Positions 66-40,928 of a stretch of 64,000 bases of DNA are shown here, piece after piece. The stretch's first letter is position 1. Every line of letters starts with the position of its first letter. The DNA is from Brucepastera parasyntrophica. Lineage in GTDB: Bacteria > Spirochaetota > Spirochaetia > Treponematales > Treponemataceae. The translations under genes were made by a program, and so were the position numbers. The notes below the pieces were generated by a model. The model made no database searches, had not been told where the DNA came from, and saw only the letters and a program-made list of their open reading frames with translations. The stretch is from positions 2,842,739 to 2,906,738 of the forward strand of contig NZ_CP084606.1 in NCBI RefSeq assembly GCF_022376835.1. The letters run 5' to 3'.

Positions 66-1946
66 GTGGATGTCCTGAGGACTTCACGCTTTGTTCTTTC
101 GTCCAGCCAGGACATAGGGTCTTCATCAACCGGGACTGTTATGGATATAGCCGATCCCGGCACAACCATACAGCTGATACGGCTTTCCCAGGGTACCTGG
201 TTCTGGACCGTCTTTGCGGAAACTGTAGACGGGCTTGATGTCAGCGCTCCCGGTGTCTCGTGGTTCACCGTACAGCCCATTCCGCCGCTTCCCTCTCCGG
301 GCGGAAGATTGCCTGCCGACCAGTATGTGATCGGCCCGGACGATCTTATGAACAGCCGGAATATTGTATTCAGATGGAACAGTGTCGCCGGCGCGAACGC
401 CTATGTTTTCTCCCTGTTCCATGAGCCCGACAGTGAGGCCGCGCAGACAAGGACCCTGTCCCGGGACGCTTCCCGTGAACTCCTTCTCCGGACAGAGCCT
501 CTGCCTGATAATTCTTTCACGCTGGAAGATCTGTCCATTCTTGACCGCGGAACCTTTATGTGGCGGGTAGAAGCCGTGTTCACGGCTGAGGACGGATACA
601 TTGAACAGCCCGGTATCGCCGGCGAGAACCGTTTTATTGTTGATATTCCGCAGCCTTCAAAGCCGCAGGTCACTAATCCGGGGCCCTCTATGGCAGATAA
701 AAGATTTTCCGCCGGCCTTTTTGCGGTTCTGTTTTTTCTGTCCTTCCGGCTGGCTGCGCAGACTGCGTCCGGTACACCGGCCCCGGCGGAAGGAGATGTT
801 CCGGCGGAAACAGCCGCGGAAAAACAGGCGTATTATATAGAAGAAACAGAAGAAGGATGGCGTTTTATCCAGATGCTTGAATGGCCCCGGCAGAGTCATG
901 TCCGCCGCTATGAAATAATTGTGGAACGGCAGGATGATGAAAGCAGGGAATATACCGAGTTTCTCAGGGAATCTGTTGAAACAAACTATATAGAAATTTC
1001 AATTCCGGCAGGCGAGTACCGTTACCGGCTTGTGGTGTATAATCTGCTTAACCGTGCGGACGGCGAGTCGGACTGGCTGCATTTCAGTGTATTCCGGGCC
1101 ATTCAGCCGGAGCTGGAAAACTTTGCTCCGCGTAATTATTACCTTGATGAAACCTTTGACCGTTCCATGGTGCTTTCGGGCGACAGCTTTGTCGAAGGCG
1201 CGGAAATTTTTCTTATTGAGCAGGATGTTCCGGGCGAACCGGTTGCAGGCGATATACGGCGGCGGAGAAAAATTTTCCCCGTTGAAAAAACAATAGATTC
1301 CTCCCAGAGACGCGCGGAGGTTGTGTTCGGCGACGCCATGCAGTCGGGCTCCTATGATGTTGTTGTGCAGAACCCGGGCGGACTCTGGTCTTCCGCCGGG
1401 ACCCTGACTGTCAAATTCCAGAAACCGGTAGATTTCAATATTTCCGCGGGCTACGCTCCCATGATACTGCTTTACGGGTCGGACATGTCGACCTACTTTG
1501 AAAAAAGGTTTTACCCCCTCGGGGCAAATATCCGTATGTCCCTTGTCCCCATAAAAAAGACATACGGATATTTCGGTTTTGAAATTGACGGCTACTGGAA
1601 TTTTATCAAAAACGAGGCCGACGGTTATACGGTTTCGACCCATCTGATCGGGGGACATTTTAATCTGCTGTACCAGAAGCCCCTGATACCGAAGCGGCTT
1701 GTCCTGAATGTCAGGGCGGGCGGCGGCGTGTTTGCCTTCCTCAATATGTATTTTGACTTCGGCGGCGGTCTGGAATCGGAGCCGCTTAATACATGGTTTC
1801 CAACGGCAGGCGGAGGCCTGTCATTGCAGTGGTTTGTATTCAAACGTCTTTACGCGGACCTTGGCGTAACATATATGCACTTTTTCTCGAAGGAAATGCC
1901 GAGCGGTTATCTGCTGCCCGTCATTTCCGTCGGCTGGCAGTTCTAG
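66..1946 (+). CDS. Hypothetical exported protein. N-terminal tandem beta-sandwich (Fn3-like) repeats; internal signal-peptide-like segment (MADKRFSAGLFAVLFFLSFRLAAQ, possible alternative start ~690); C-terminal beta-barrel-like region ending in Phe (putative outer-membrane protein). The ORF may continue upstream of the window.
   Basis: Long ORF from the track. Repeated W-x-V/aromatic domain motifs, an internal hydrophobic h-region plus AQ cleavage-like site, and a C-terminal ...VISVGWQF ending typical of OM beta-barrels. Confidence 0.5.
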   Translation: MDVLRTSRFVLSSSQDIGSSSTGTVMDIADPGTTIQLIRLSQGTWFWTVFAETVDGLDVSAPGVSWFTVQPIPPLPSPGGRLPADQYVIGPDDLMNSRNIVFRWNSVAGANAYVFSLFHEPDSEAAQTRTLSRDASRELLLRTEPLPDNSFTLEDLSILDRGTFMWRVEAVFTAEDGYIEQPGIAGENRFIVDIPQPSKPQVTNPGPSMADKRFSAGLFAVLFFLSFRLAAQTASGTPAPAEGDVPAETAAEKQAYYIEETEEGWRFIQMLEWPRQSHVRRYEIIVERQDDESREYTEFLRESVETNYIEISIPAGEYRYRLVVYNLLNRADGESDWLHFSVFRAIQPELENFAPRNYYLDETFDRSMVLSGDSFVEGAEIFLIEQDVPGEPVAGDIRRRRKIFPVEKTIDSSQRRAEVVFGDAMQSGSYDVVVQNPGGLWSSAGTLTVKFQKPVDFNISAGYAPMILLYGSDMSTYFEKRFYPLGANIRMSLVPIKKTYGYFGFEIDGYWNFIKNEADGYTVSTHLIGGHFNLLYQKPLIPKRLVLNVRAGGGVFAFLNMYFDFGGGLESEPLNTWFPTAGGGLSLQWFVFKRLYADLGVTYMHFFSKEMPSGYLLPVISVGWQF

Positions 1947-2200
1947 GGGACCTGACGCCGGCTGATGGTGCGCATAATCCGGACTTTTCTGCTGAAGGAA
2001 CGGTCTGTAAAAACAGTCTAACAGGCAGTGAAATGTCCGGCTTGGTATATACTTTAAATCAGCGCAGGTTCAGCAAACCTTGCTCCTGATAAAACTATCC
2101 GCGGCAAAAAACTTCAGCGCAAGTTTATACGAGCTTCTGCCGCGTCAGGGAACCGGTCAATGTAGGAAAAACCGGGACCTGTCCGTTACCGGAGGCATTC

Positions 2201-4852
2201 ATGAAAAAAAAGTTATCCTGTTTGCACGCAGCTTTTATACCGGCTTTGGCCGCGGCCCTCCTGCTGACCGCCTGCAACGCCTTTAATGTTTCCGTGCCCG
2301 AATATCTTGAAGAATATACTTCAAACGCCGCGGCGGAGAGCTGGCGGATTACCACCGGCTCCCAGACCGGACCCGACAGTAAAAAAATTATTATACCGCC
2401 TTCTGACCCGGCGGAAGAAAGCAGCCACACCCTTATAAGCGTCCGGCTCAGGAACCCGAAAAAGTACCCGCTGGCGCTGGGGCTTTCCCGTTATGACACA
2501 GCCGAGGGGGAATATGTTTCTGTTGCCGGTGAAGCCGAAGCGGAACAGACTTCAGCCGACTATATAACAATAACGGTTAAAGATGCCTCCATCCGGGACG
2601 AGTTCCGGTTCCGGCTGTCGATGAAAACACAGGACAATCTCCGGACCTTTGCCGACTATAACCTTCCCCTTATCCGCTGCAATGTCACCCCCGCTTCCGC
2701 TGATAATCTTGAGGTGCGGAATGAAGCCGGGACGCCCACCGTATACTGGAACATGAATACCGCGGATGATTATATTGACGTGAATGAAGTTACGGTATAC
2801 CTCAAGGCCGAAAATACGATTAATACATATATGTATACGAGGGAGACAGATTCTGGTCCCTGGAAAACCGCCGGAGGGACAGAGCTTGATTATACTGATC
2901 CTTCCGCCAGTCTGGCCTTTCCTGCCGGTATGATATCGCAGGAAACAGGGGCTATGGATACGGAAGAATTTGAAAAATACTATAATTTCGCTGTTGTTCT
3001 GAAAAATTCCGACGGGCTTGAGGCCCGGAACGCAACGCCCGGTTTCGGCTGGGACGTATCTCCCGCGGTATTGGCCGGCATTGCCCAGTCGGATGATAAC
3101 CCCGCCCGGGTAAAAGTCACTCTGATCGCGCAGGACGGCAGCCTGAAGGCCGACGAAATACTGTATACGCTGGGCGGCGACAGTACGGTTCATACTTACG
3201 GAAATCCGTTTGAGGCCGCCATCGGAACGGAACTTGTTGCCTGGTCGACAAAGAGCGGCCGGATACCCTCGCGGAAAACCTCGCGAACCCTCATGCTCGA
3301 TACCGTAGTGTTTGTGGATGAAAACTCAACCCCGGCGGCGGATGATAATTATGGATTTGTACCGGCTCTTCCCGCGCCTACAATAGAGGCCGCCATAGAC
3401 TTGCTGAAAACGGCAGATTCCGCTTCCGGCACGGCCGTCCCGCGATATGTCCTGCTTATGTCCGATGTTACTTCCGGCAATTCCGGAAACACCAGCGCGC
3501 TGGTTGAAATAGTAAATTATGACAAAACCCTTGTTATACAGCCGATGGCAGAGAATGATACCGTAACTATTGACGCGGCTGACAGCGGAAGGACAATGTA
3601 TATATCCAGCACATATAACCCGGACATTACCCTGAAAAACCTGATAATAACGGGCGGAAGTCTTTCCTCCGATTATGGTCATGGGATTTTGCTGGTGAAC
3701 CGCGGGACCCTTACTCTGGACAACTGTACCATTACAGACAATGGTAATGGTTTCGGATCAGGCGGAGGGATTGCCCTAAACGGTAACTGGACGCTTAATA
3801 TAAAGGGCGAAACCCGGATCACGGAGAACACAGCCGCGAACGGCGGCGGAATATATAACCGCGGCGGGACTGTCAATATTGAAGACGGAACAATTTCCGG
3901 AAACGGCGCCTCAATGGGCGGGGGCATATACAATGACGGCGGAGCGGTCAATATTGAAAATGCGACCATTTCAGAAAATAACGCTGATCAGCGCGGCGGC
4001 GGTATCTGCATAGTAGCGGGCGGCGGCGGGAGCGTTACCCTGAACGGCGGGACCATTTCCGGCAATGAGACAGCCGGAAACGGCGGCGGAGTATATGTGG
4101 GCGGAGATACATTCAACATGAACGGCGACTTAGTCACTGGAAATACCGCGCAGAACGGCGGCGGTGTGCATATTGAGCTCGGGGCTTTCAATATGACCGG
4201 CGGGGTTATTACCGGCAATGAGGCCACGGTAAACGGCGCCGGTGTGTGTGTAAACGACGGGACCTTCTCCATGCAGGGCAACGCGAAGGTTATTATGGAA
4301 AACCCCGTGTATCTCAAGTCCGGAAAAACGATAACCCTTTCAGGTGATTTCAAGTACCGGGATGCTATCGCCAAGATACAGCCGGAAATGTACGATATAA
4401 ATGTCCGGGTGCTTGACGGGCTGGCCGGATACATTGCGGACAACCATACCAGCTTCGCGGTTGAGGATCAGGAGAACAGCGGTTCCTACCTCAGCTGGGC
4501 TGTCGATAAAAACGGGTACCTTGTTAAAGCCATCGGGATAAGCTGCGATTTTGTGGATGGTATATACGGGCTTGCCTTTACCCCGCCCTCGGATGGACTT
4601 ATCGTAGATAAAGAGGATACTGTCAATATTACTGTTAACCGGTCGTCTCTTCCCACAGCAGCCGGGCTTTCATATACCATACTGATAGAAGGTGAACCTG
4701 ATGTCTCCGCGGAGCTGCTGTCAGGCAATATGATCCCCTTTACCGCGCCAAATACGGCCGGGCAGCACACTGTTTTTGTGGAAATCATTGTGGACATGGA
4801 CAGCAGAAAAACCGCCTATTCCGGCAGCTTTGTGCTGACCGTGAGAATGTGA
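2201..4852 (+). CDS. Large surface lipoprotein with right-handed parallel beta-helix repeats (Pmp-like GGG[IV]/NGGG motifs).
   Basis: ATG with GGAGG RBS. Signal peptide ending in the lipobox LLTAC. More than 10 tandem repeats of xNGGGIYxxGGTVNIxxGTISGN type. Confidence 0.75.
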   Translation: MKKKLSCLHAAFIPALAAALLLTACNAFNVSVPEYLEEYTSNAAAESWRITTGSQTGPDSKKIIIPPSDPAEESSHTLISVRLRNPKKYPLALGLSRYDTAEGEYVSVAGEAEAEQTSADYITITVKDASIRDEFRFRLSMKTQDNLRTFADYNLPLIRCNVTPASADNLEVRNEAGTPTVYWNMNTADDYIDVNEVTVYLKAENTINTYMYTRETDSGPWKTAGGTELDYTDPSASLAFPAGMISQETGAMDTEEFEKYYNFAVVLKNSDGLEARNATPGFGWDVSPAVLAGIAQSDDNPARVKVTLIAQDGSLKADEILYTLGGDSTVHTYGNPFEAAIGTELVAWSTKSGRIPSRKTSRTLMLDTVVFVDENSTPAADDNYGFVPALPAPTIEAAIDLLKTADSASGTAVPRYVLLMSDVTSGNSGNTSALVEIVNYDKTLVIQPMAENDTVTIDAADSGRTMYISSTYNPDITLKNLIITGGSLSSDYGHGILLVNRGTLTLDNCTITDNGNGFGSGGGIALNGNWTLNIKGETRITENTAANGGGIYNRGGTVNIEDGTISGNGASMGGGIYNDGGAVNIENATISENNADQRGGGICIVAGGGGSVTLNGGTISGNETAGNGGGVYVGGDTFNMNGDLVTGNTAQNGGGVHIELGAFNMTGGVITGNEATVNGAGVCVNDGTFSMQGNAKVIMENPVYLKSGKTITLSGDFKYRDAIAKIQPEMYDINVRVLDGLAGYIADNHTSFAVEDQENSGSYLSWAVDKNGYLVKAIGISCDFVDGIYGLAFTPPSDGLIVDKEDTVNITVNRSSLPTAAGLSYTILIEGEPDVSAELLSGNMIPFTAPNTAGQHTVFVEIIVDMDSRKTAYSGSFVLTVRM

Positions 4853-4860
4853 GGAGGGGA

Positions 4861-7800
4861 ATGATGAGACGGAATACCTGCGTTTTACTGGCCGCGGCTG
4901 TTCTTGCCGCCTTATATATGACGGTTTCATGCAGCAACGCCTTTCTTGAGCGGGTCCCCTCGCGCGGACCGGCTCCGGCCGCTGAGGGAATGCTTGATAT
5001 CACGGCATCCGCCGCTTTGTCCGCGGGACGGGCCGCCTTTCCGAATATCGTAATAAGCAGATACGAGTTTACCGTCAAGGACGGGGCCGGAAAAGTAATT
5101 GGTTCAATCACTGAAACAGCGTCCGGTAACGCTGTCAGTATTACTTATCCTGCCTCGGCCGGATATACAATAACCGTGGCCGGAAAAGATTCTTCCGGCA
5201 AAGAGCTTGTCTCCGGCGAAGCTGCTGTTACTGAGGCCCATATCACCGCGGGGACGATGGAAATTAAGATATATCCTGTTACAACAGGCGGAACAGGTTC
5301 AGTTGATCTTAAAATAAAATTCCCGAAGGAATTTGATGACGGCAGTCCGGTAACAAGGGTCATAGCTGAACTCTTGCGGAGTGACGGCACCCAGGCCGGC
5401 CAGGCGCAGACAATTCTCTCAGGTTCATTCGGAGAGCCGGATGCCGGAAGCAGTTCCATAACCGTTGCGTACGATTCCGCGCCCGCCGGCATTCTGCGCC
5501 TGAAACTCACGTTTTACCGGTGGAAAACCACAAATCCTGAGGACGGGATTCCGGCCGGCGTTGTATACGAAAGCCTGAATGTCTGGGCAAATACCTGCAC
5601 GGACAGCTGGCTTAAAGTTACCGATACAACAACCGGTGTGTATGAGCTCGCGGAATACCTTGAACTCACTGAAGATGATTTTTATGATGCTACGGTGACG
5701 CTGGAGAGCGTAAAACAAGAATTTGATGATAATGGAATTGTGCTTGATCTTGTGCTAAACATTGACTATTATCACGAAGTTTCTGCAGAAAAAGTATCAT
5801 TAACTTTTACCATTGGTTTCGACGGTCAGTCGTTCACGATTACAGATGCCAAAGGTTCCTCCGCTGGGCTTGAACCGGATAAGACTTCTGATGGTGTTTT
5901 CAGTGTTTCAAATATTTCCCTTTTTCCCGGTCCGAATAAATTTGTGCTAACTGTAACAGCACCCGACAAACAAACAACAAAAACGTATAATCTGATATAT
6001 ACAACTCCTCCGATTTGGTATGTGGATGAAACCATAGGGGATGATGACAACACCGGAACGGCTACATATCCTCTTGCCAGTGTCAGCGCGGCACTTTCCC
6101 GCATAGCCGCATTGTATGATCCCGATACATGGCCGCATGATTTTGTTAATAATGAATCTGTTGGTCAAAAAACCGCCGAAATCCGGATCAACGGTGACCT
6201 TACTCCAACTGCAGATGACGCCAATCCCAATGGTTTCATTGTTATCGACAATGCCGCCGGTTCATATCCTCCCATACTGCTCAGCGGCAAAGGCGTTTCA
6301 TACCCGGGCGCCCTGGACGCGGATGGAGAGGCCCGCGTGCTGTATATAAACAACGCTGACGTTACCCTGGGCGAAAACCTTACATTGAAAGGCGGTAGCG
6401 CGGAAAGCGGCGGCGGCGTGTACGTGACCGGACCAAACGCGAAATTCACGGTGTCCGGCGGGGAAATTTCGGAAAATGAATCAACCGGTTCCGCCGATGC
6501 AAACGGCGGCGGAGGCATATACGCCGGAAACGGCGCTAAGGTGTTTATGACAGGAGGCACCGTCAGCGAAAATGAGGCGGTAAACGGAGGCGGCCTGTAT
6601 GTTACGGGAAGCGGAACGGCCCTTGAGATGACCAACGGAACCGTCACTGACAATGAGGCCGCCAAGGGCGGCGGCGTGCTGGTCCTGAATAACGCCGTTT
6701 TTACAATGAAGGACAATATCTTCCAGGGCGGAATTATCACCCGAAACACCGCTGTTTATGACGGCTCTTCTCTGCTCACAGGCGCCGGCGCGGGTGTGCT
6801 GGTATATACCGGAGGGAGCTTTAACCTTGAAGCGGGACAAATAACACAAAACGAGTCGGAACTGAACGGCGGCGGTGTACTGGTTATGGGCGGGACCTTC
6901 AATATGAGCGGCGGAACCATTGGCGGCAGTTCAACATCTGATGCCAACAAAGCGGTATACGGCGGCGGCATAGTCCTGTATGATGACGCTGTCTTTACCC
7001 TGACCGGCGGGGAAATCAGTTATAATGAAGCGGAGGAAGGCGGCGGCGTGTATATCAATAATGCTGCCGGAGGCGTCACCGCTGCAATGACCGATGGAAA
7101 AATCAGTTACAATACCGCGGATTCCGGCGGCGGGGTGTATATAACCGGAACAGGCCACAGGTTTAACATGAGCGGCGGGGAAATTTGCTATAATGAGGCA
7201 AACGCATCATTATATGCAGGCGGCGGCATTTATATTGAGGCAGACGCCAATACAGCCGTCAATCTGTCCGGTTCCGCACAGATACACCATAATACTGCAA
7301 CTGACGGTTTTGGCGGCGGAATTTACGCATACGGCGGAACCATTATCCTGAGTGAAGCCGCGGAAATAAGTGAAAATGAAGCGCTGGGCGGTGGCGGTTG
7401 CGGCGGCGGGATGTATCTGCAGGGCCAAAACAAATTTACGATGAACGGCGGAGCTGTCCGCGGTAATACCGCGAACAGTCAGGGAGGCGGGCTTTTTACG
7501 CAGCAAACTGAGTTTACCATGACTGCCGGAAGCATAGAAGATAATAATGCCGTCAATCTCTCTAATAGCTTCGGCGGAGGAGTATACCTGGACAGTGGAT
7601 CGCAGTTTACCATGAGCGGGACCGCGGTAATCAGAAACAATAAGGCAAACAGACAGGGCGGCGGTGTGAATATTTATTGTTCAACCTTCAATATGAACGG
7701 CGGGACAATAACAGGAAATCTGCTTACAAATACATCCTATTCCGAACCCGGCGCGGGTGTGTATGTCGAAGCGCCCCAGCTGAATTTCCCTGCTATATTC

Positions 7801-8226
7801 TCCATGAGCGGTCCTGCCCAGGTGACTGCAGATAATGACGTATATCTGTCACTTGGTGGCACCGGAAACTACCGAGCCATGCTAACGGTCGGCGGTAATC
7901 TCACCGCTTCAAAGGCCGCAGTCATTACGCCGGCAAGTTACCCCAGCGGAACGGACACTGTTCAGGTGCTGGACGGTGACACAGGGCTGATAACGGCAAA
8001 CGCCTCGAAGTTCGGCGTTACCCCGCAGATTGACGGGATTGACACGATATACTGGCAGGTGGACACGGAAGGGAAGCTGGACAAGATTCAAAGTCAGTCC
8101 ATTACTAACTTTGATGATCTCAAAAATGCAATAAACACTACCAACATTGGCGGAACCGCTATTCTGCTCATCGTCGGTACATTCGAAATGGAAGATACCA
8201 TCGCAATCAGTGATTCAAAAATATAA
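4861..8226 (+). CDS. Giant beta-helix repeat lipoprotein, paralog of the upstream gene. The reading frame is broken near its end and continues in 8214..9188. The track start GTG 4849 overlaps the upstream stop; ATG 4861 behind a GAGGAGG RBS is preferred.
   Basis: Lipobox MTVSC. About 25 NGGG[IV]Y/GGG[VL] beta-helix repeats. Starts 8 bp after the upstream stop, so probably in one operon. Confidence 0.75.
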   Translation: MMRRNTCVLLAAAVLAALYMTVSCSNAFLERVPSRGPAPAAEGMLDITASAALSAGRAAFPNIVISRYEFTVKDGAGKVIGSITETASGNAVSITYPASAGYTITVAGKDSSGKELVSGEAAVTEAHITAGTMEIKIYPVTTGGTGSVDLKIKFPKEFDDGSPVTRVIAELLRSDGTQAGQAQTILSGSFGEPDAGSSSITVAYDSAPAGILRLKLTFYRWKTTNPEDGIPAGVVYESLNVWANTCTDSWLKVTDTTTGVYELAEYLELTEDDFYDATVTLESVKQEFDDNGIVLDLVLNIDYYHEVSAEKVSLTFTIGFDGQSFTITDAKGSSAGLEPDKTSDGVFSVSNISLFPGPNKFVLTVTAPDKQTTKTYNLIYTTPPIWYVDETIGDDDNTGTATYPLASVSAALSRIAALYDPDTWPHDFVNNESVGQKTAEIRINGDLTPTADDANPNGFIVIDNAAGSYPPILLSGKGVSYPGALDADGEARVLYINNADVTLGENLTLKGGSAESGGGVYVTGPNAKFTVSGGEISENESTGSADANGGGGIYAGNGAKVFMTGGTVSENEAVNGGGLYVTGSGTALEMTNGTVTDNEAAKGGGVLVLNNAVFTMKDNIFQGGIITRNTAVYDGSSLLTGAGAGVLVYTGGSFNLEAGQITQNESELNGGGVLVMGGTFNMSGGTIGGSSTSDANKAVYGGGIVLYDDAVFTLTGGEISYNEAEEGGGVYINNAAGGVTAAMTDGKISYNTADSGGGVYITGTGHRFNMSGGEICYNEANASLYAGGGIYIEADANTAVNLSGSAQIHHNTATDGFGGGIYAYGGTIILSEAAEISENEALGGGGCGGGMYLQGQNKFTMNGGAVRGNTANSQGGGLFTQQTEFTMTAGSIEDNNAVNLSNSFGGGVYLDSGSQFTMSGTAVIRNNKANRQGGGVNIYCSTFNMNGGTITGNLLTNTSYSEPGAGVYVEAPQLNFPAIFSMSGPAQVTADNDVYLSLGGTGNYRAMLTVGGNLTASKAAVITPASYPSGTDTVQVLDGDTGLITANASKFGVTPQIDGIDTIYWQVDTEGKLDKIQSQSITNFDDLKNAINTTNIGGTAILLIVGTFEMEDTIAISDSKI

Positions 8227-9188
8227 CCATCCTCAGCTCCGGAAATTTTACCCTGAGCAGGCCTTCCGGTTTCACCGGTTCCTTCTTTACGGTTGACGGC
8301 GGCGCTTCCCTGACGCTGGGCGAGATCGGCAGTATGAATACACTGACCATGGACGGAAATAATATTTCCGCTGACGCTCCCTTAGTCATTGTAAACAATG
8401 GAACTCTGACTATTAATGACGGAGTGACGTTGCAGAATAATAATCGTACAGATTCATCATATGGGGGTGCTGTCGATATAATTAATGGTAGAATGGAAAT
8501 GAGCGGAGGGAAAATTACCGGAAATTATTCAATTAATGGCGCCGTTGCAGTTCAGAATAACGGGGTATTTACCATGACAGGCGGAGATATTACTGCGAAC
8601 ACTACAAATAATCAAATTGGAGGTGTATATATAAATGGAGGGACCTTTACTTTAGTTGATGGATGTATTTCAGAATCAACTTATGGAGGGATGGGCTTCG
8701 GCGGTACCGGTACTTTTATTATGACTGGTGGCACAATATCAGGGGCAGCTACCGCTACTGGTACTCTCGGACGTCTTGGAGGAATATCAGTTTGGACTGT
8801 AAGTGACTGGGACCGTAATAGTGTTACTATTAAACTCAGCGGAGAAATAGATATTGATATGATAACCTTGTCTTCTGATCCTCTCATTGCTGCCAGTAAC
8901 TTGATTCCTATTTGCATGGCAGGTACAGTCACTTTGCCATCCGTTGGCAGCACCATAAAAATAAGAGCCTTTAGTTCTTACAGGATAGGGGAGCTTCCAG
9001 ATACCACTAATTATTATGAGTATGCCCCATTCGTAGGGGAAACTGTCCTCCAGGGAACCGATGGTTATACACTGGCAGCAAGTGATGTCGCAAAATTCGT
9101 GTTATGTGATGAGAACGGCGATCCGGTATCAGATTACAAAATTGAACTTAACGCTGACGGTAATGGTATTATAGCAGCCGCTCCCTGA
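8214..9188 (+). CDS. 3' continuation of the 4861..8226 beta-helix lipoprotein after a -1 frame change at an A5 run (8217-8221). The track ORF is 8334..9188.
   Basis: Open frame from 8214 (FKNITILSSGNFTLSRPSGFTGSFFTVDGGASLTLGEIGSMNTLTMDGNN...) carries the same repeat architecture. Restoring one A gives a single ~1450-aa protein. Confidence 0.6.
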   Translation, partial: FKNITILSSGNFTLSRPSGFTGSFFTVDGGASLTLGEIGSMNTLTMDGNNISADAPLVIVNNGTLTINDGVTLQNNNRTDSSYGGAVDIINGRMEMSGGKITGNYSINGAVAVQNNGVFTMTGGDITANTTNNQIGGVYINGGTFTLVDGCISESTYGGMGFGGTGTFIMTGGTISGAATATGTLGRLGGISVWTVSDWDRNSVTIKLSGEIDIDMITLSSDPLIAASNLIPICMAGTVTLPSVGSTIKIRAFSSYRIGELPDTTNYYEYAPFVGETVLQGTDGYTLAASDVAKFVLCDENGDPVSDYKIELNADGNGIIAAAP

Positions 9189-9193
9189 TATAC

Positions 9194-9228
9194 CTGAAAG
9201 ACAGCGTTATCTGCTGCCTTTCAGGACA
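9194..9228 (+). terminator. Hairpin terminator after the beta-helix lipoprotein operon.
   Basis: cctgaaagacagc / gctgcctttcagg stem of about 13 bp with one mismatch, followed by a T-rich tract. Confidence 0.45.
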
Positions 9229-9750
9229 GGGTTCTGATGTTTTCATGAAAAACGGAGAGGGCCGCGGCAGTCCATACGGAAACCTCTGATGTGACTGCCA
9301 TCTGCTCAAAATGTCCTGAAAAAATCCGGAATATGGGGTATGCGGTTTTCTTTTCACGGGAACCAGGCCCCTTCGCATCATACCGGATTTCTGTTTTTCT
9401 GCCCGGAATAGGTGCGGCCCGCAGGCTTTCTCACATTCTTTTTTGAAGCCTGTTTTTGGTGCCGGAACTACACTCCTTATTTTTCCATTGGAAGGGCCGT
9501 TCCTTCCCCAATAAAAAAGTCATTTTCCCCGCGGTTTTTCCTTTACAAACCGGACTTTCCGGTACATACTTGAATTATCAGTACAACCTGTTGTACACCC
9601 GCTCCGGCTGAAAATCCGCGAAAAACCGCGAAAATATGTATCTTCCAAAGCCGGGATGAGGCACTGTTCCTCATCCCGTATCAGTGTTTTTTTTGTACCC
9701 GCATTATCCAGGTAAAGTGCCCTGTTCCCGGGAGCGGGCGGAAAGCGGGT

Positions 9751-9833
9751 TTACACAAAGTGCTGTGTGAGACGGAAAAAGTTTACACATTGCCGTGTGT
9801 AAGGAAAAAAACTTTACACATGGTCATGTGTAA
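9751..9833. promoter_or_regulatory. Array A: three tandem 20-bp palindromes TTACACA-N6-TGTGT(A/G)A at 9751-9770, 9783-9802 and 9814-9833. Each is followed by GG(A)AAAAA; unit period 31-32 bp. Lies upstream of the lipoprotein gene that starts at 9892.
   Basis: Read directly from the sequence. Related to array B at 12840-13093, which is in inverted orientation. Confidence 0.7.
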
Positions 9834-9891
9834 GTATTTCGCGTGACGGAAAGATCCCGGCGTTTTACTGCTGATAATAAGGAGAAAAAAA

Positions 9892-10014
9892 GTGAAAAAG
9901 AGACTGTCTTGCGCCCTGTTTCTGCCGGCTGTCCTCGCGGGCGTGCTTCTGGCCGTTTCCTGTGAAAACCCCTTTTACCGGGACTTCCTCAAAAAACCGG
10001 TTACCGTTACCTGA
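9892..10014 (+). CDS. Mini-ORF encoding only a lipoprotein signal peptide (VKKRLSCALFLPAVLAGVLLAVSC + 16 aa), ended by an in-frame TGA at 10012. It is the N-terminus of the downstream lipoprotein (gene interrupted).
   Basis: GTG start 8 nt after AAGGAG. Lipobox LAVSC. Same frame as 10015..12531. Confidence 0.5.
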   Translation: MKKRLSCALFLPAVLAGVLLAVSCENPFYRDFLKKPVTVT

Positions 10015-10071
10015 GACGCGAACGGGGGCGCGGGCGCCGTCCCTAGGGCGGCTGAGGCTGAAAAAGATGAT

Positions 10072-12531
10072 GTGATAACCGCTCCGGACGGAACCGGGTT
10101 GTCGAAAACAGGCATGGGCTTTGCGGGCTGGAACACAAAGGCCGACGGGACCGGCGTCTCCTATGCGGCGGGCTCAAAGATAAAGATAACGGGAAACCTG
10201 AAACTCTACGCCCAGTGGGCCGGGAACAGTTACACGGTAACCTATGACGGAAACGGCCACACGGGAGGCGCGGTCCCGGCCTCGGCTGACTCGGTGTACG
10301 GGGAAAGCCACAGCCTTGCCGGGCCGGGCGGTCTCGAAAAAACCGGCCACAGTTTCGCGGGCTGGAACACGGAACCTGACGGGAGCGGGACACCGTACCC
10401 CGCGGGGACGGGCGTGACGGCTGACTGGGACGGTCCTGTTACATTATATGCCCGGTGGGTGAGCGGCAACGCTGATTTAAGCAATCTGACGGTAAGTGAA
10501 GGGGCCCTGTCCCCTGCCTTTGACCCTGGCGTCATATCTTACACGGTGGAAGTACCCGACACCACGGACAGCCTGACGGTGACAGGCGCCGCGGCGGACA
10601 GCGGGGCGGAACTCAGCGCGAACAGCGGAGCGCCCCAAACACTGAGCGGAGACAGCACTCCGGTAACAATACGGGTGACCGCGGCGGACGGAAGCATAAA
10701 GGACTACACGGTAACCATAGTCCGGCTCGACACCGCGAAAACCATAACGGGTTTCAGTTTTACCGGACTTGCGGAAGGCAATATAAATGAAAATGAAAAA
10801 ACGGTCACGCTCACAGCGCCGTACGGGACGGCTGTAACAGGCCTCGTACCCGATATAACGCACACCGGTGTGAGCGTGAGTCCCGCGTCCGGCGAAGCGG
10901 AGGACTTTACAAACCCGGTAACATACACGGTGACCGCAGCTGACAGCAGTGCGCAGATCTATACGGTAACGGTGAGCGTCGCCTCCCTTGTGTCGATAAC
11001 TCTGAGCGGCGCATACAAGACTCAATATAAAATTGGTGAAAGTCTTGACACCTCGGGACTGGTAATTACGGGGACGGACAGCGCAGGGAACAGTGTGGCA
11101 ATACCTGCCTCCTCATGCGACTTTACAGGCTTCAATAGCGCGACGACGGGTGAAAAAACGGTGACGGTAACCGTGACGGGTACGTCCGTGACAAAAACTT
11201 TCTCCGTGACCGTGCTGAGCAATAACGCGAACTTAAGCGCCCTGACGGTGAGCAACGGAACCCTGACCCCTGTCTTTGACACGAACACGACAAGCTACAC
11301 GGTGAGCGTGGCGAACAGCGTGACCAGTATAACGGTAACCGGTACAAAAGCCGACAGCACCGCAGGTCTGAGTTCTAACAACGGAGAGGTTCAAACGCTT
11401 TCCTTGGGAACGAATCCCATATCCATAACAGTGACCGCGCAGGACGGAACAACCAAGGTATACACGGTAACGGTGACGAGATCGGTACCCAGTACCAACG
11501 CAAACCTTAGTGGCATATCGTTAACTTCGGGAACCCTGAGCCCTGTGTTTACATCCGATGTACTTAATTATACGGTACGCCTGGCTAACAGCGTGAGCGG
11601 CGTCAGGATAACGGGGATAGCGGCGGACAGTGGGGCTGTTGTGAGTGGCAGCGGCTCAACTGACACGCTTACGGTCGGGACGGCAACGCCCAAAACAATA
11701 ACGGTGACCGCCGAGGACGGTGTGACAACAAAGACCTACACCGTAACGGTGACGCGGCAGGGCAGCGCGAGCCTGAGTGCATTGACAGCCAGTGCGGGTC
11801 AGCTGACTCTGGCGTCGTCGGAAACGAATTTCGCAACTACTGGATTTGCATCGGCAGCACTTGACTATATAGTGGGGATAGCTGGAACAAGCGGTGAAAC
11901 GAAGAGCGTAACGATAAACGCGACATCTGCCAGCGGAACGGTGAGCTATTCGCTTGCCGGAGGAGTCGTAAGTGGAATAAGTCGCGGGAACCCTCAAGCG
12001 CTTGAGATAACGGTAACAAACGGAAGCGAAACTTGCATATACACGGTGACCTGTATGCTTGTCGGCTACACGGGCGAGGCAGGCCTTGTATTCTACGACA
12101 AAGGAAATAGCACCGGAGGCTGGCAATACCTTGAGGCTGCGACTGCGGATGCAGGTACGGCGGAATGGGGCTTATCCGGAGTACGCATAAGCGAAACGGT
12201 GACAAGTATAGGAAGCGGAAAGGGAAACACAGGGATACTGGTGAGTGCGCTTACGGCAGCGGGAGAAAGCGGACGGGCAGCACTGCTGTGTGATGCATAC
12301 AGCGGCGCTGGGAGGACTGACTGGTATATGCCGAGCAAAGACGAGCTTAATCTGATGTACAGTAATCTGCACAAGAACAGCCTGGGCAGTTTTACGAACC
12401 ATGGGTACTGGTCGTCGTCTCAGTACTCTCCTAATGAATACGGCGTAGCGTGGAGTCAGTACTTCAACAGTGGAGACCAGATGGACAACAGGAATATTTC
12501 ATTTTACGTACGGGCCTGCCGGGCTTTTTAA
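10072..12531 (+). CDS. Surface protein body. Flg_new (Listeria-Bacteroides) repeats x2, four cadherin-like beta-sandwich domains (ADLSNLTVSxGxLSPxF...YTVTV.R), and a C-terminal DUF1566 (Lcl-like) domain. The in-frame open reading extends back to 10015, right after the TGA.
   Basis: YTVTYDGNGHTGG / GHSFAGWNTEPDGSG / LYARW motifs. Repeated beta-sandwich modules. WYMPSKDELNLMYSNL DUF1566 motif. Confidence 0.75.
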   Translation: MITAPDGTGLSKTGMGFAGWNTKADGTGVSYAAGSKIKITGNLKLYAQWAGNSYTVTYDGNGHTGGAVPASADSVYGESHSLAGPGGLEKTGHSFAGWNTEPDGSGTPYPAGTGVTADWDGPVTLYARWVSGNADLSNLTVSEGALSPAFDPGVISYTVEVPDTTDSLTVTGAAADSGAELSANSGAPQTLSGDSTPVTIRVTAADGSIKDYTVTIVRLDTAKTITGFSFTGLAEGNINENEKTVTLTAPYGTAVTGLVPDITHTGVSVSPASGEAEDFTNPVTYTVTAADSSAQIYTVTVSVASLVSITLSGAYKTQYKIGESLDTSGLVITGTDSAGNSVAIPASSCDFTGFNSATTGEKTVTVTVTGTSVTKTFSVTVLSNNANLSALTVSNGTLTPVFDTNTTSYTVSVANSVTSITVTGTKADSTAGLSSNNGEVQTLSLGTNPISITVTAQDGTTKVYTVTVTRSVPSTNANLSGISLTSGTLSPVFTSDVLNYTVRLANSVSGVRITGIAADSGAVVSGSGSTDTLTVGTATPKTITVTAEDGVTTKTYTVTVTRQGSASLSALTASAGQLTLASSETNFATTGFASAALDYIVGIAGTSGETKSVTINATSASGTVSYSLAGGVVSGISRGNPQALEITVTNGSETCIYTVTCMLVGYTGEAGLVFYDKGNSTGGWQYLEAATADAGTAEWGLSGVRISETVTSIGSGKGNTGILVSALTAAGESGRAALLCDAYSGAGRTDWYMPSKDELNLMYSNLHKNSLGSFTNHGYWSSSQYSPNEYGVAWSQYFNSGDQMDNRNISFYVRACRAF

Positions 12532-12631
12532 CTATTAAATGTTTGAACCGCGGAGGCTTGGCAGGCGGTCAAAATGTTTTTTTACTATGATTTATGCCTT
12601 GGCTTAAGCAGTAAATACTGGCATTCTAAAG

Positions 12632-12660
12632 GGGAACGAGTTGCTGTGCAAGTCGTTCCC
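12632..12660 (+). terminator. Candidate terminator hairpin downstream of the DUF1566 lipoprotein gene.
   Basis: gggaacga / tcgttccc 8-bp stem with a 13-nt loop, followed by a T-rich tract. Confidence 0.35.
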
Positions 12661-12839
12661 TACTTGATTCTTCGACTTGCCTAACTTGTCTCCAGAGGAG
12701 TAAGGCGGAGTAACGACACGGCACACTGGATTTTAGAGAAATTCTACCGGAAAGCCGTTCAGGAATTTGTCGCTGAGCAGGTTAATCTGGAAGTTCTCTG
12801 ATGGGCTTTGTTTTTTGCCAAACTACGGCAGTTTGTACC

Positions 12840-13093
12840 TTACACATTACCGCGTGTAGCCCGGGACAGTTTTACACATATCGGTGTGTAAGATAGCCTC
12901 TGTTTTTCCATAGACGCTGACTGTCGGGCAAGCGCGCCAGTCACCAAGAGAAAGAAACCCGCTATAACAGCCTTCCATATCCACGCGGCAGTTCCAAACC
13001 AAATTACTTCCTACACATCCCAATGTGTAAACTTTCCCTTTCTTACACACACTATTGTGTAAGCTTTCCTTTTTCTACACACTGCATTGTGTA
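12840..13093. promoter_or_regulatory. Array B: the same palindrome family in inverse orientation. 12840-12859 is degenerate, 12872-12891 is perfect, and a triplet lies at 13011-13030, 13043-13062 and 13074-13093 with a 31-32 bp period and T/C-rich 3' tails.
   Basis: Read directly from the sequence. The units are reverse complements of the array A units. Confidence 0.7.
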
Positions 13094-13548
13094 ATCTTTT
13101 TTCTTCTTGAAAAATACCTGAAACCATATCCCGCCGCAAAAACATAGCGTTACATAATTTTTTGCCTCAAATACGATAGCCCATCGTATCAGGCCTGGTT
13201 TTACCGTATCGCTATACACTAAAACTTTCGTCAGGAATAAGGACGAGGGGGCAGCGTAAGACCCCTGACTTTGGCTATTAGCCAAAGTCAGGAGGCTGGA
13301 GACTTTATGATTATTGAAGGAAAGGGTAATCTGAATCCGACGGGAATTGGAAGCCGGGACCGGTTGGCCCCTCGCGGAGAGGGAACATTCTGAAAAGAAA
13401 GACCTCGGTTCGGAGAGAAACAATACCGGCCGCCGAATAAACGAATGCGAAATAGTTTTTATGGCTATTATCGCGAATAGGAGCTCGGTGTACCCCGAAA
13501 AAGCAGGGAAGACTTCCATCCCTTATTTTATAAGAATGGGAGAAAAGT

Positions 13549-14091
13549 ATGAAAGAAGAGGCAAAACGGTATGTTGGTTTAGATTTAGCCAAACGAACAA
13601 TGGAAGTATGTATTCTTAATGACTGCGGAAAAACAGAGCTGAGTAAAAGCGGGGTAAAGACTGACGAAACCGGAAGGAGCCAATTGGCAAACATCTTGAA
13701 ACAAACAGATATTGTGGGAATGGAAGCCTGTGCGTATGCATTTGTACTGGGGAGATATATAGAACAAGCTGTTGGGTGTACGGTATATATTCTAAACCCA
13801 GGGAAGTTACAAATGATATGGCGCTCGACACGAAAAACAGACAAGGAAGACGCACGTAAAATAGCTTCATTTATTCAAAGATATCCGAAAGAAGAATTAC
13901 CGATAGTAGTAATGCCAAGTGAAGAAGAGGAAATGCTGCGGAAATACGTATCAATGAAAAGTTATTTGACCAAACTGCGGACCAGTGTCCTTAATCGGTT
14001 ACATGTAGTATATGTCCAAGCAGGAATAACGACCATAAAAAAGAGTCATTTACATACACCCGAAGGAAGAATGAAACAAAAGGAAGGATGA
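13549..14091 (+). CDS. IS110-family transposase, N-terminal DEDD (RuvC-like) domain. Ends at an in-frame TGA at 14089.
   Basis: YVGLDLAK...MEACAYAF...KTDKEDARKIA motifs. Confidence 0.75.
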   Translation: MKEEAKRYVGLDLAKRTMEVCILNDCGKTELSKSGVKTDETGRSQLANILKQTDIVGMEACAYAFVLGRYIEQAVGCTVYILNPGKLQMIWRSTRKTDKEDARKIASFIQRYPKEELPIVVMPSEEEEMLRKYVSMKSYLTKLRTSVLNRLHVVYVQAGITTIKKSHLHTPEGRMKQKEG

Positions 14092-14103
14092 CCGGAAATA
14101 CTG

Positions 14104-14658
14104 GTGATATTTGCGGAACTATTAGAAAAAGAATTAAAAACGACCGAAGAGCAATTAAAAGAGTTAGAGAGAATCATAGAAAATAACGTAAAAGGCCATG
14201 AATTGGCGCCGTATGTGATGTCGATTCCTGGGGTAGGAATTGGTGTAGCGGCAGCATTTCTTGCCTATGTGGGGGATGGGAGTCGGTTTTCAAAAGCAAG
14301 TGAAATAGCCAATTATGTAGGACTGGTGCCCCGAATAGATTGTTCGGGAGAAACGAATCGGTATGGCAATATTACTAAAGAAGGATGCCGGGCCTTACGA
14401 AGGGTGATATTACAATCGGTATGGTCATTAGTACGATGTAAAGAAGGCGGCGGCCGATTACAAGCAAAATTTTTCGCGCTTAATGAACGGATGGGAAAGA
14501 CGAAAAGTGCTGTTGCGATTGCGCGAAGGATGGTTACCCTTATGTGGATATTGGTACGGCGGAAAGAATTCTATGCAGATATATCAACGGAACAACTCAA
14601 ACGGAAGTTTCGTTATTATCACATACATTATGAGGGATGGGAGTCAAAAATCGCTTGA
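14104..14658 (+). CDS. IS110-family transposase, C-terminal (Transposase_20) domain. Same frame as 13549..14091.
   Basis: SIPGVGIGVAAAFLAYVGDGSRFSKASEIANYVGLVPRIDCSG motif. Confidence 0.75.
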   Translation: MIFAELLEKELKTTEEQLKELERIIENNVKGHELAPYVMSIPGVGIGVAAAFLAYVGDGSRFSKASEIANYVGLVPRIDCSGETNRYGNITKEGCRALRRVILQSVWSLVRCKEGGGRLQAKFFALNERMGKTKSAVAIARRMVTLMWILVRRKEFYADISTEQLKRKFRYYHIHYEGWESKIA

Positions 14659-14762
14659 CAATAATCATAGGAGCGAGGGGGTGCCGCGTCTGCGGTGCTC
14701 CTGTCCGGAGCCTGACGGCCGGCTGTTCCGGCTGGAAGGCGTTCCCCCTTTAAAATAAAAAA

Positions 14763-14797
14763 GGCGTGTCCGGCAAAGCGCTGTGTCCGGGCACGCC
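14763..14797 (-). terminator. Rho-independent terminator for the minus-strand gene 14806..15834.
   Basis: ggcgtgtccgg / ccgggcacgcc 11-bp stem. On the plus strand an A-run precedes it, which is a T-run after the stem on the minus strand. Confidence 0.6.
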
Positions 14798-14805
14798 ATC
14801 TTTTC

Positions 14806-15834
14806 CTATTCCCCGTCCTGTGTTCCCGGGGAATATTCCCTGCGGAGGGTTTCCTCGTCCTTGAGGCTTTCGGTCATGCGGTCAAGTTCGCTTTTTGCCT
14901 TTGAATCTCCTGTCGAAGTATACAGGTCCTGCATGAGGGCGATTGCGCCTCCGGTGTTTCCGAGCAGTTCCGTCAGGAGCGCCGCGTTATAGCCTGCCGC
15001 GAAGTTTCCGTTTTCGGCGTATACCTCGCTGAATATTTCGCGGGCGTCCGCGTAGGAACCGTTCTTTACCAGAGTGTCGGCTTCCTTCATTCTGGGGTCT
15101 TTTGTTTTGTCTTTTTCAAAATACCTGTGTTCGACTGCTGTCCAGGGCGCGATTTCCCTGCTGAACAGGGCGAGTTCGTCATTTATAATCATCCTGACCA
15201 GATCGAGTTCTGACATGAGGGAGGTCCTGACATTCAGAATGTCCGTGTCTTCCTTCCGGTCGGAGGCAGTTCCCGATTTTGTTACCTGGCTTATGATCCT
15301 GCCGTTGTCGGCTCTGATAAAGCGGTAGGTGAAGTCAAGGGTAACGACCCGCTCCGCGGTATAGATTTTTGTGAGGGAATCATTCGAGGAGGAAACTTCG
15401 CTGACGTTTTCCAGAGTACGGGCCGAAAGAAGATTGATTTCGCCGGTGAGGTAGGCGTCGACTACCGAGGCGTAACCGCCCTGCGTATTTCCCGCTCTGG
15501 CCAGCTGGTCCTGGCTGATAACAACAAAGGCGTTTGAGGCAAGCAGTTTGTCCGTGACTGCAGTTGTCAGGGCCTGGGCCGCCTGCTCTTCAAGGCGGGT
15601 GTTGTATTTATTCGCCGGAGAAAAAAAACGCTGATACACTGTGTTTAGCTGGCCGCTGTCCGTTTTATTATAGGCCAGATCAAAGGGGGCGACCGCGATA
15701 CGCTGGACCCCGCTCATGTCGGTCAGGGGAGGCTTTGTGACCTGGACCCGGACCGAGGTCGCGCAGGAAAAAAACAGCACAAGCAGGGCCGCCGGTAAAA
15801 AAACATTTTTCAGGATTGCAGCCTTTTTATTCAT
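14806..15834 (-). CDS. Hypothetical lipoprotein with a C-terminal TPR-like helical region.
   Basis: Start MNKKAAIL preceded by AAGGAG. Lipobox FFSCA. The track ORF extends to 15915. Confidence 0.55.
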   Translation of the reverse strand: MNKKAAILKNVFLPAALLVLFFSCATSVRVQVTKPPLTDMSGVQRIAVAPFDLAYNKTDSGQLNTVYQRFFSPANKYNTRLEEQAAQALTTAVTDKLLASNAFVVISQDQLARAGNTQGGYASVVDAYLTGEINLLSARTLENVSEVSSSNDSLTKIYTAERVVTLDFTYRFIRADNGRIISQVTKSGTASDRKEDTDILNVRTSLMSELDLVRMIINDELALFSREIAPWTAVEHRYFEKDKTKDPRMKEADTLVKNGSYADAREIFSEVYAENGNFAAGYNAALLTELLGNTGGAIALMQDLYTSTGDSKAKSELDRMTESLKDEETLRREYSPGTQDGE

Positions 15835-39559: not shown

Positions 39560-40928
39560 ATGAAAGTAGTAATTATCGGCGCAGTCGCGGGCGGCACGAC
39601 TGCCGCGACAAAGATAAGGCGGAATGACAAGTCCGCTGAAATTATTCTTTTCGAACAGGATGGGGATATTTCATATTCAGCCTGCGGCATACCGTATTAT
39701 GTGGGGGAGAAATCCCCAAAGCCGAATCCCTGACTCCCCGGGGTCCCGCATGGTTTAAGGACAAATATAATATTGATGTCCGTATTTTTCACCGTGTGAC
39801 CGCAATACATCCCGATAAAAAAACGGTTGAGGTTCTTAATCTTAAGACCGGTGAAAGCAGTACGGTTTCGTATGATAAACTCATTTTTTCAACCGGAGCC
39901 CTGCCGGTCATTCCCGCTCCGTTCGCAACGGCGCTTGACGCCGGAAACATATTTACGGTCAGAACGATCAGGGACGCGGTAAAAATACGGACTTTCATAA
40001 CGGAGTCAAAACCGGAACGCGCCGTTATAATCGGGGCGGACTGATAGGACTCGAAATGGCGGAGCAGCTGAGAAAACTGGATATTGATGTCACTCTGGTA
40101 CAGTGGCACCCTCATATATTATATCAGATGGATGAAGATATGATCCTGCCCGTGCAGTATGAGCTTGAACAGCATGGCGTTCATCTGAAACTCGCGACTG
40201 AAGTGACCGGATTTCAGCGGGGCCCGGGCAATAATATACATATTCTGGAAACGGCCGGGGGAGAAAAACTGGAAGCAGACATGGTCCTTCTCGCCGCGGG
40301 AGTTCGTCCGAATACGGAACTGACCGTAGGCACCGGCATTAAGACAGGTGTGACTGGTGCCGTAAAAGTTGACGCGTATATGAGAACAACTGTTCCGGAT
40401 ATTTATGCTGCCGGTGATGTAGCGGAGAGTTTTTCGGTTATCACGGGCAAGGCTGTTTACCGTCCCCTCGGAACAACGGCCAATAAAACAGGACGGATAG
40501 CAGGGGATGCTGTGACAGGCGGCGGTCTCAAACACCGGGGGGTACTGGGTACCGCAATTGTCCGTGTGTTCGGCATTACTGTTGCGTTTACCGGACTGAA
40601 TGAACGTGAGGCTGCTGACCACGGTTATGACTGTATCAGCAAACGCGATACCTATCCCGATCACGCTCCCTATCTGGGCGGCGAAAATATGGTGGTAAAA
40701 ATTATCGCGGATAAAAAATCCGGCCTTGTTCTCGGCGCCCAGATTACCGGAAGGGCAGGGGTGGATAAACGTATCGATGTGCTGGCTACAGCCATTACTT
40801 ACAGGGCCCGCGTCGAAGACCTGTTTCATCTTGACCTTGCCTATTCCCCTCCCTATTCAATTGTAAAAGATCCCATTCAGTATGTAGGCATGGCTATGGA
40901 AAAACAAATCCAGGGAAAGAATTCATAA
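39560..40928 (+). pseudogene. CoA-disulfide reductase / NADH oxidase (pyridine nucleotide-disulfide oxidoreductase) broken into three ORFs by single-base deletions in G runs (39703-39707 and ~40038).
   Basis: MKVVIIGAVAGGTTAATKIRR...CGIPYYVGG | EIPKAESLTPRGPAWFKDKYNIDV... | GLIGLEMAEQL... The C-terminal dimerisation domain is intact. Confidence 0.7.

Follow-up and report, generated by a model that had tools for sequence, protein, structure and literature searches.

The 64,000-nucleotide stretch analysed here (the window), from the 3.24-Mb genome of the gut spirochete Brucepastera parasyntrophica, contains a locus that, judged from its sequence, is one 879-codon lipoprotein gene split by a single in-frame TGA (10012–10014, on the forward strand, like the other features of the locus). 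We put at about even the chance that this TGA is a real nonsense mutation of recent origin, in a gene belonging to a family of surface lipoprotein paralogues. An ordinary recent knock-out or an assembly error, rather than a special decoding signal, is the most likely explanation. The family appears to combine Flg_new, cadherin-like and Lcl_C/DUF1566 domains. A preliminary description had offered a pseudogene, read-through and a base-call error as explanations, and these proved to be the right set of options.

The gene starts at a GTG codon at 9892, with a Shine-Dalgarno sequence, AGGAG (9880–9884), legible in the sequence 7 nt upstream across an A7 run. From this GTG the frame reads MKKRLSCALFLPAVLAGVLLAVSC ENPFYRDFLKKPVTVT and then reaches the TGA. 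Positions 9892–9963 encode the lipoprotein signal peptide MKKRLSCALFLPAVLAGVLLAVS and the lipobox cysteine Cys24 (LAVS/C). We assigned the signal peptide by eye and by alignment with two paralogues in the same genome, P0003 (lipobox LFTSC) and P0032 (LFTAC), which align with it across the signal peptide, the lipobox and the following repeat. Its features are those of bacterial lipoproteins, comprising the basic MKKR, the hydrophobic LSCALFLPAVLAGVLLAV and the S-C24 lipobox. The TGA occupies codon 41, 17 residues past the cysteine to be lipidated. The zero frame downstream is open for 838 codons (10015–12531), with neither a second stop nor a frameshift, to a TAA at 12529–12531. Direct reading confirmed the previously described succession of a LAVSC signal peptide and a TGA, and the domain matches given below agree with the claim that the same frame continues into a Flg_new/cadherin-like/DUF1566 reading frame. 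The full-length gene thus keeps undamaged signals for translation (Shine-Dalgarno sequence and start) as well as an undamaged signal peptide and lipobox.

The TGA lies in the first beta-strand motif (PVTVT*DANGG, the asterisk marking the stop) of Flg_new repeat 1, a Listeria-Bacteroides or InlB B-type repeat (10003–10215; Pfam PF09479). The PF09479 match covers residues 38–108 (profile positions 2–65 of 65) whichever letter is placed at residue 41, and scores 82.1 bits with X, 84.8 with W and 87.9 with Y. When the part downstream of the TGA was searched alone, the match began only at profile position 6. Because repeat 1 bridges the TGA, and the two paralogues align across the junction, the join is no accident and the two parts were one gene of 879 codons. 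The Flg_new matches, at 69–88 bits against a gathering cut-off of 27, belong to the family. The remainder (within 10015–12531) contains a second Flg_new repeat, a DUF5018-like region, a Big_3 domain (11011–11214), three cadherin-like domains (best match, 11233–11481) and a C-terminal Lcl_C/DUF1566-like domain (12292–12522), the last scoring 31.0 bits, below the Pfam gathering score of 34.9.

The NCBI proteins at this locus, of 352, 818 and 819 residues, are all N-terminally truncated and devoid of the signal peptide. The remainder is 100% identical to ULQ61212.1 (818 aa) and WP_439647447.1 (819 aa) of B. parasyntrophica, which are placed at internal starts within 10072–10077, the longer at GTG 10072 and the shorter at ATA 10075. 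The products of these starts lack a signal peptide, and the sole Shine-Dalgarno-like sequence nearby, GAGG, lies 15 nt upstream. Judging by their names in the sources, none of the three versions is labelled a pseudogene. The practical use of the result is in annotation: the locus should be recorded as a single 879-codon lipoprotein gene, disrupted or miscalled.

The residue expected at the TGA is well defined by the repeat family. Among 506 homologous repeats, the column holds Tyr in 331, Phe in 173 and Leu in 2, with neither Trp nor Cys; a tblastn search gave the same picture (264 Tyr, 121 Phe and 2 Leu, with no Trp). Both paralogues carry Tyr at this column and have no stop there. The preliminary description had placed the TGA at an aromatic position, which is borne out by Tyr or Phe in 504 of the 506 repeats, and had given the consensus as Phe or Trp, which is wrong. 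Its proposal of a TGG-to-TGA change rested on that consensus and loses its support with it. TGG to TGA is the sole one-step route from an aromatic codon to TGA, so that a TGG ancestor may be the most economical guess, and a guess only; it has no backing in the family, because Trp is absent from all 506 repeats and both paralogues have Tyr. A Tyr or Phe codon needs two changes to become TGA. For a single-step mutation the ancestral residue must therefore have been Trp, Cys or Leu, each of them atypical of this Tyr/Phe column.

A full-length protein search recovered only the locus itself and the two paralogues (ULQ60752.1 and ULQ60845.1; 42–52% identity). No orthologue was found among 5.8 billion proteins or in contig collections, and a search with the N-terminal part alone gave no match at E ≤ 1e-5. 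A scan of a collection of genome contigs yielded 80 Flg_new loci, all in other taxa, and the exact TGA context had 0 matches in metagenomes.

Several observations favor a recent nonsense mutation. The stop falls at codon 41 of 879, where the paralogues carry Tyr, as in a nonsense pseudogene. The gene does not look like an old, decaying pseudogene, with a single lesion, 838 open codons and every domain still scoring. The lipoprotein family is redundant in the genome, where two paralogues have intact N-termini. One of these, P0003, ends abnormally within a cadherin-like repeat, which suggests more decay within the family. The neighboring IS110 element, itself decaying, and the use of TGA as a working stop in this genome point the same way. 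Against a real mutation, an error would leave just such a picture, a lone lesion in a flawless 2.6-kb gene; the base accuracy of the assembly is limited, the Tyr/Phe column calls for an unusual ancestor if the change took one step, and the searches gave no orthologue with an intact allele.

If the mutation is real, release factor 2 would terminate translation at codon 41, releasing a 40-residue pre-lipopeptide. The 838-codon remainder would either stay untranslated or be initiated internally, its product then lacking an export signal, and the gene would be functionally off in both cases. UGA is the leakiest stop codon according to published work, and publications suggest that a near-cognate Trp-tRNA may at times read it, giving traces of full-length protein with Trp at the Tyr/Phe position. 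Such read-through would be passive leakage rather than a control device. According to the literature, bacterial genes that are intact apart from an in-frame stop are common, and they are often expressed at low levels (PMC7918605, PMC9122581).

The lipoprotein gene adjoins a decaying IS110 element, whose transposase gene (13549–14658, forward strand) is separate from it and carries an in-frame TGA of its own. This second TGA, reported earlier, is present at 14089–14091; the kinship with the lipoprotein TGA that the earlier report had hinted at did not hold. It falls on a Leu that, of 20 aligned sequences, at least 90% share (CTT in the nearest relatives). From the alignment, the IS110 TGA is therefore an independent event that arose by another substitution, in a mobile element undergoing decay. 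A shared mutational cause was rejected, the IS110 change being Leu to stop, and the two TGA contexts have no common motif.

Palindrome arrays flank the lipoprotein locus. We considered an invertible or mobile cassette bounded by these arrays and rejected it: the only adjacent recombinase is the broken IS110 transposase, which lies outside them. No matching target duplication was seen, and the pattern of the arrays had no meaningful match in metagenome or viral collections.

In the window, the lipoprotein gene and the IS110 transposase gene are the only recognisable genes with an in-frame TGA. About 3.7% of random substitutions in its coding sequence create a stop. If substitution errors are no more numerous than the roughly 11 indel errors counted in the preliminary description, they should produce fewer than 0.5 nonsense codons per window. 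The window has two, which counts in favor of real mutation. TGA is the outcome of just 21% of one-step nonsense changes, and both stops are TGA (p about 0.05, n = 2), which weakly favors better tolerance of a leaky stop.

A substitution error in the assembly or base calling is the strongest competitor to a real nonsense mutation, and we regard it as possible, if somewhat the less probable. The organism would then carry an unbroken 879-codon gene with a sense codon at this site, TGG being the simplest. This fits an otherwise undamaged gene and a Trp at residue 41 that suits the Pfam model (2.7 bits better than X). It also fits an error-prone assembly, in which a TatD-family gene and an oxidoreductase gene have each demonstrably lost one base from a homopolymer. 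With one A added to the A5 run (49145–49149), the TatD match grows from profile positions 2–144 (72.9 bits) to 2–252 (185.5 bits); with one more G in the G4 run (40033–40036), the Pyr_redox_2 match grows from positions 157–280 to 63–280 and the motif AVIIGGGLIGLEMAE is restored. Further candidate deletion sites lie at 29846–29851 and 8217–8221. Of the 11 other errors described earlier as homopolymer deletions, two are thus confirmed and at least two more are plausible. GGGGG/CCCCC runs are also scarcer than expected (45 observed, 70 expected). Such deletions in conserved genes mean that the base accuracy of the assembly is limited, and that gene-content claims on this type strain need a read-level check.

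The nature of the errors nevertheless argues against this explanation. Every proven error is a homopolymer deletion and none a substitution, while the TGA at 10012–10014 lies outside any homopolymer. Starting from the Tyr or Phe codon typical of the family, two wrong bases would be needed to reach TGA, and an error from TGG presupposes a residue that none of the homologous repeats has. A systematic, methylation-type miscall of CCTGG as CCTGA was rejected, as CCWGG still occurs 122 times (160 expected) and CCTGA is not enriched; the unlike contexts of the two TGAs likewise speak against a common miscall.

Programmed or maintained read-through of the UGA, with Trp inserted to give low or cell-to-cell variable amounts of the surface lipoprotein, is very improbable. 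Its appeal lies in the perfectly kept downstream frame and in the near-cognate Trp, which is aromatic like Tyr and Phe and scores positively in the model. Published surveys, too, hold that in-frame stops are often read through in the short term (PMC7918605). An intact downstream frame, however, shows just that the lesion is young, no orthologue is available to show conservation, and the paralogues have no stop at this position. The sequence after the TGA showed no stimulatory structure and had no Rfam match. Its minimum free energy is −27 kcal/mol, whereas shuffled versions average −30.4 (z = +1.08), and 175 of the 200 shuffles are as stable or more so. The stop context, ACC-UGA-G, has G as the fourth base, whereas PMC9122581, citing Engelberg-Kulka 1981, gives A as the base following a leaky UGA. 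These results leave the suggestion of UGA-controlled expression without support. Bypass by a prfB-like +1 frameshift was also rejected: the +1 frame closes 21 codons on, and it is the zero frame that encodes the conserved DANGG motif. UGA is read through at a low basal rate, 6% in one Bacillus subtilis reporter (catA86-TGA). The rate in E. coli is lower.

A selected form of read-through deserves separate mention, though we think it very improbable. A Tyr codon could have mutated to TAA, and selection could then have kept a TAA-to-TGA transition, which would raise leakiness and restore a trickle of Trp-bearing lipoprotein. The two steps needed from Tyr or Phe, and the occurrence of TGA at both stops of the window despite its 21% share of nonsense routes, are compatible with a selected leaky stop and far from proof of one. 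If true, a selected leaky UGA would mean low or variable adhesin display, a substitution-based alternative to repeat-tract phase variation.

Systematic decoding of UGA, as selenocysteine, as Trp or Gly under a variant code (tables 4 and 25) or by a dedicated suppressor tRNA, can be dismissed as highly improbable, the sequence offering nothing in its favor beyond the stop being UGA. Some termite-gut treponemes do make selenoproteins. Here, selenocysteine was rejected in view of the missing SECIS-like hairpin and Rfam match and of homologues with Tyr or Phe rather than Cys, and the product is an exported, beta-rich, adhesin-type protein rather than a redox enzyme. A global TGA = Trp code, judged unlikely earlier, is excluded, and UGA = Gly goes with it: TGA terminates 10 of the 25 open reading frames of at least 300 codons in the window, frames that by construction contain no internal TGA. 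The advice to look for a suppressor tRNA could be followed within the window, which holds none, its single tRNA gene being tRNA-Leu(UAA).

Comparison with known systems places the locus among familiar types. In domain content it resembles the Listeria InlB B-repeat/Flg_new (TIGR02543) proteins and the proteins with the Legionella Lcl C-terminal domain (DUF1566), here behind a lipoprotein signal peptide; it differs from them in that its Lcl_C match is below the gathering score and its nearest relatives are the two paralogues of the same genome. With SelB/SECIS-dependent recoding it shares an in-frame UGA inside a conserved domain, but it lacks the hairpin, its homologous residue is Tyr or Phe rather than Cys, and it encodes a structural repeat protein destined for export. 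With UGA reassignment (codes 4 and 25) it shares a UGA at an expected aromatic position. Reassignment involves a tRNA-Trp with a 4-bp anticodon stem, and spirochaetes go unmentioned in the survey that describes it (PMC13092985). In the window, by contrast, UGA is a frequent true terminator. Nonsense pseudogenes and "pseudo-pseudogenes" (Feng et al. 2022, PMC9122581; Belinky et al. 2021, PMC7918605) likewise have a lone in-frame stop and intact signals, and UGA is the codon classically known to be read as Trp at low frequency. The read-through stops of Salmonella are mostly UAG with C neighbours, whereas the present one is UGA-G. Among redundant surface-protein paralogues, a lone nonsense codon is biologically routine.

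The reading frame of the lipoprotein gene opens at GTG 9892, seven bases after a Shine-Dalgarno sequence, AGGAG (9880–9884, forward strand), encodes MKKRLSCALFLPAVLAGVLLAVSC-ENPFYRDFLKKPVTVT and is then interrupted by TGA at 10012–10014, 17 residues beyond the lipobox cysteine. Past this codon the frame (…DANGGAGAVPRAAEAEKDDVITAPDGTGL…) stays open for 838 codons, ending with TAA at 12529–12531. Whatever residue fills codon 41, the full product of 879 residues contains two Flg_new repeats, a DUF5018-like stretch, a Big_3 domain, three Cadherin-like domains, and a C-terminal Lcl_C (DUF1566-type) domain whose score of 31.0 bits lies below the gathering score of 34.9. The first Flg_new repeat covers residues 38–108 and profile positions 2–65 of 65, scoring 82.1, 84.8, and 87.9 bits with X, W, and Y at residue 41, respectively. 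Since this match spans residue 41, and the fragment 3' of the TGA alone matches only from profile position 6, the TGA sits within the domain and the locus is one gene, interrupted, in agreement with the preliminary description.

The signal peptide is absent from all three NCBI protein calls for the locus (10072–12531): WP_255949345.1 (352 aa), ULQ61212.1 (818 aa, start ATA 10075), and WP_439647447.1 (819 aa, start GTG 10072). The ORF downstream of the TGA is 100% identical to Brucepastera parasyntrophica proteins. Among 5.8 billion proteins, the same architecture was found only in two paralogues from the same genome, P0003 (ULQ60752.1; 42% identity) and P0032 (52%), and no orthologue turned up in this protein set or in the contig and metagenome collections. 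In both paralogues the lipoprotein N-terminus is intact and can be aligned with the sequence in the window, reading MKRK…LFT(S/A)C ENPF… K T x TVTYH(A/V)NGG where the window has …TVT*DANGG. P0003 (758 aa), encoded elsewhere in the genome, ends abnormally within a cadherin-like repeat (…SITVTETLIEIFMQWRRS), and may also have been truncated, by frameshift or insertion. The adjoining 1125-aa ORF opens with a lipoprotein signal, MMRRNTCVLLAAAVLAALYMTVSC (4849–4950), and the ORFs at 66–9188 encode large repeat proteins with hardly any Pfam matches; the gene is therefore located in a surface-protein gene cluster.

A 20-bp palindrome, TTACACA-N6-TGTGTAA, with 0 occurrences expected by chance in 64 kb, is found solely around the lipoprotein gene, at seven sites with at most two mismatches and an eighth, at 12840, from a separate search. 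Three copies with 31–32 bp spacing and A-rich spacers (9750–9834) end 58 bp 5' of the start codon, a pair lies at 12840–12892 (copies at 12840 and 12872), and a further array with T-rich spacers occupies 13008–13103 (copies at 13011, 13043, and 13075). Because this downstream array is an inverted copy of the upstream one, inverted triple arrays bracket the 3.2-kb segment between them, which is richer in GC (57.5%) than its flanks (46%). The arrays may act as operator arrays or terminators, or may be REP-like elements; they had no meaningful match in metagenome or viral collections, nor in 80 homologous loci.

To identify the residue once encoded at the TGA, we built a profile from 80 collected loci with Flg_new repeats and retrieved 520 instances of the repeat. 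At the position of the TGA, 331 of these have Tyr, 173 Phe, 2 Leu, and 14 a gap, and tblastn gave Tyr 264, Phe 121, and Leu 2. As Trp appears in neither count, the (F/W) consensus proposed earlier does not hold. The TGG-to-TGA change derived from it is the sole single-step aromatic route, and Trp is tolerated by the Pfam model, but the family and both paralogues indicate Tyr. Reaching TGA from TAY requires two changes, and it is improbable that one codon took two neutral hits in succession in 2.5 kb of otherwise undamaged sequence. TGA may instead have been reached through an atypical intermediate (Trp, Cys, or Leu) or by a tandem double substitution.

A second in-frame TGA, also reported in the preliminary description, is present at 14089–14091 in the transposase gene (13549–14658) of an IS110-family element (~13300–14690). 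It is excluded as a second TGG-to-TGA change by its alignment column, where at least 90% of sequences have Leu (alignment with 19 relatives, 44–74% identity), and by CTT in the two closest relatives with available DNA. The change, from Leu to a stop, is independent of the first and affects a mobile element in decay. The protein search returned no intact copy of the transposase from the same genome (best match 73% identical). Of the one-step substitutions that create a stop in the genes of the window, only 21% give TGA, so that two TGA stops have p ~0.05 (n = 2), a faint hint that a leaky stop is better tolerated than other stops. In the ~250 nt 5' of the transposase gene (13300–13548), conservation with the metagenomic relatives L083 and L084 is about as high as in the coding part; this would fit the non-coding (bridge) RNA of IS110 elements, although the putative RNA had no Rfam match.

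With one A inserted into the A5 run at 49145–49149, the TatD_DNase match grows from profile positions 2–144 (72.9 bits) to 2–252 of 253 (185.5 bits); with an extra G in the G4 run at 40033–40036, the Pyr_redox_2 match grows from 157–280 to 63–280 and the dinucleotide-binding motif AVIIGGGLIGLEMAE is restored. One-base homopolymer deletions are thereby proven to split both genes; the oxidoreductase gene carries another, upstream lesion, since its N-terminus is still missing after repair. Two more runs are likely further sites: T6 at 29846–29851, in an FtsX-type permease gene, and A5 at 8217–8221, where a repair would fuse two surface-protein ORFs of 1125 aa and 284 aa (4849–8226 and 8334–9188). 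The homopolymer deletions described earlier are borne out at least in part. G5/C5 runs are under-represented (45 observed, 70 expected) and GGGGT/ACCCC over-represented (96 observed, 64 expected). This pattern suggests an unpolished long-read assembly. The true TatD start (MFSDTHCH) lies further downstream than that of the mechanical ORF 48471–49172, beneath whose 5' end runs a tRNA-Leu(UAA) gene (48488–48575, minus strand).

We favor a real, recent nonsense mutation, to which we give an even chance, because substitutions account for the minority of errors in this assembly, the surface lipoprotein family of the gene is redundant, P0003 also ends abnormally, and a decaying IS element adjoins the gene. 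Termination at codon 41 would leave the long ORF untranslated, or translated from an internal start into a protein that lacks the export signal; from published work, traces of full-length protein could arise if Trp is now and then inserted at UGA by near-cognate decoding. A wrong base at 10014 is somewhat less probable, yet a serious contender given the unpolished long-read signature, and mutation and miscall alike predict just one lesion, with the rest of the gene undamaged. However, all proven assembly errors are homopolymer deletions, the TGA lies outside any homopolymer, and a random substitution produces a stop in only ~3.7% of cases. Systematic miscalling of CCTGG as CCTGA is ruled out, as CCWGG sites remain frequent (122 observed, 160 expected) and CCTGA shows no excess.

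A maintained read-through site is very unlikely. Folding of the 91-nt stretch from 10000 is no more stable than that of shuffled sequences (-27 vs -30.4 kcal/mol, z +1.08), Rfam gave no match on 9000–15200 even at E ≤ 1, and neither approach detected a SECIS-like or read-through-stimulating element. The stop tetranucleotide is UGA-G; the classic leaky context, according to PMC9122581, has A as the next base. A prfB-like frameshift is ruled out because the +1 frame closes after 21 codons. Least probable of all is reassignment, selenocysteine, or a suppressor tRNA: the 25 open frames of at least 300 codons end in TGA (10), TAA (12), or TAG (3), so the code is standard, in line with the preliminary view that a global TGA=Trp code is unlikely; homologues have Tyr or Phe and never Cys at the position; and the suppressor check, confined to the window, found tRNA-Leu(UAA) as its sole tRNA gene.

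The main value of the finding lies in a corrected annotation and a warning on assembly accuracy. The observation itself is accurate and the feature ordinary: a lipoprotein gene with a nonsense interruption, or a miscalled one.
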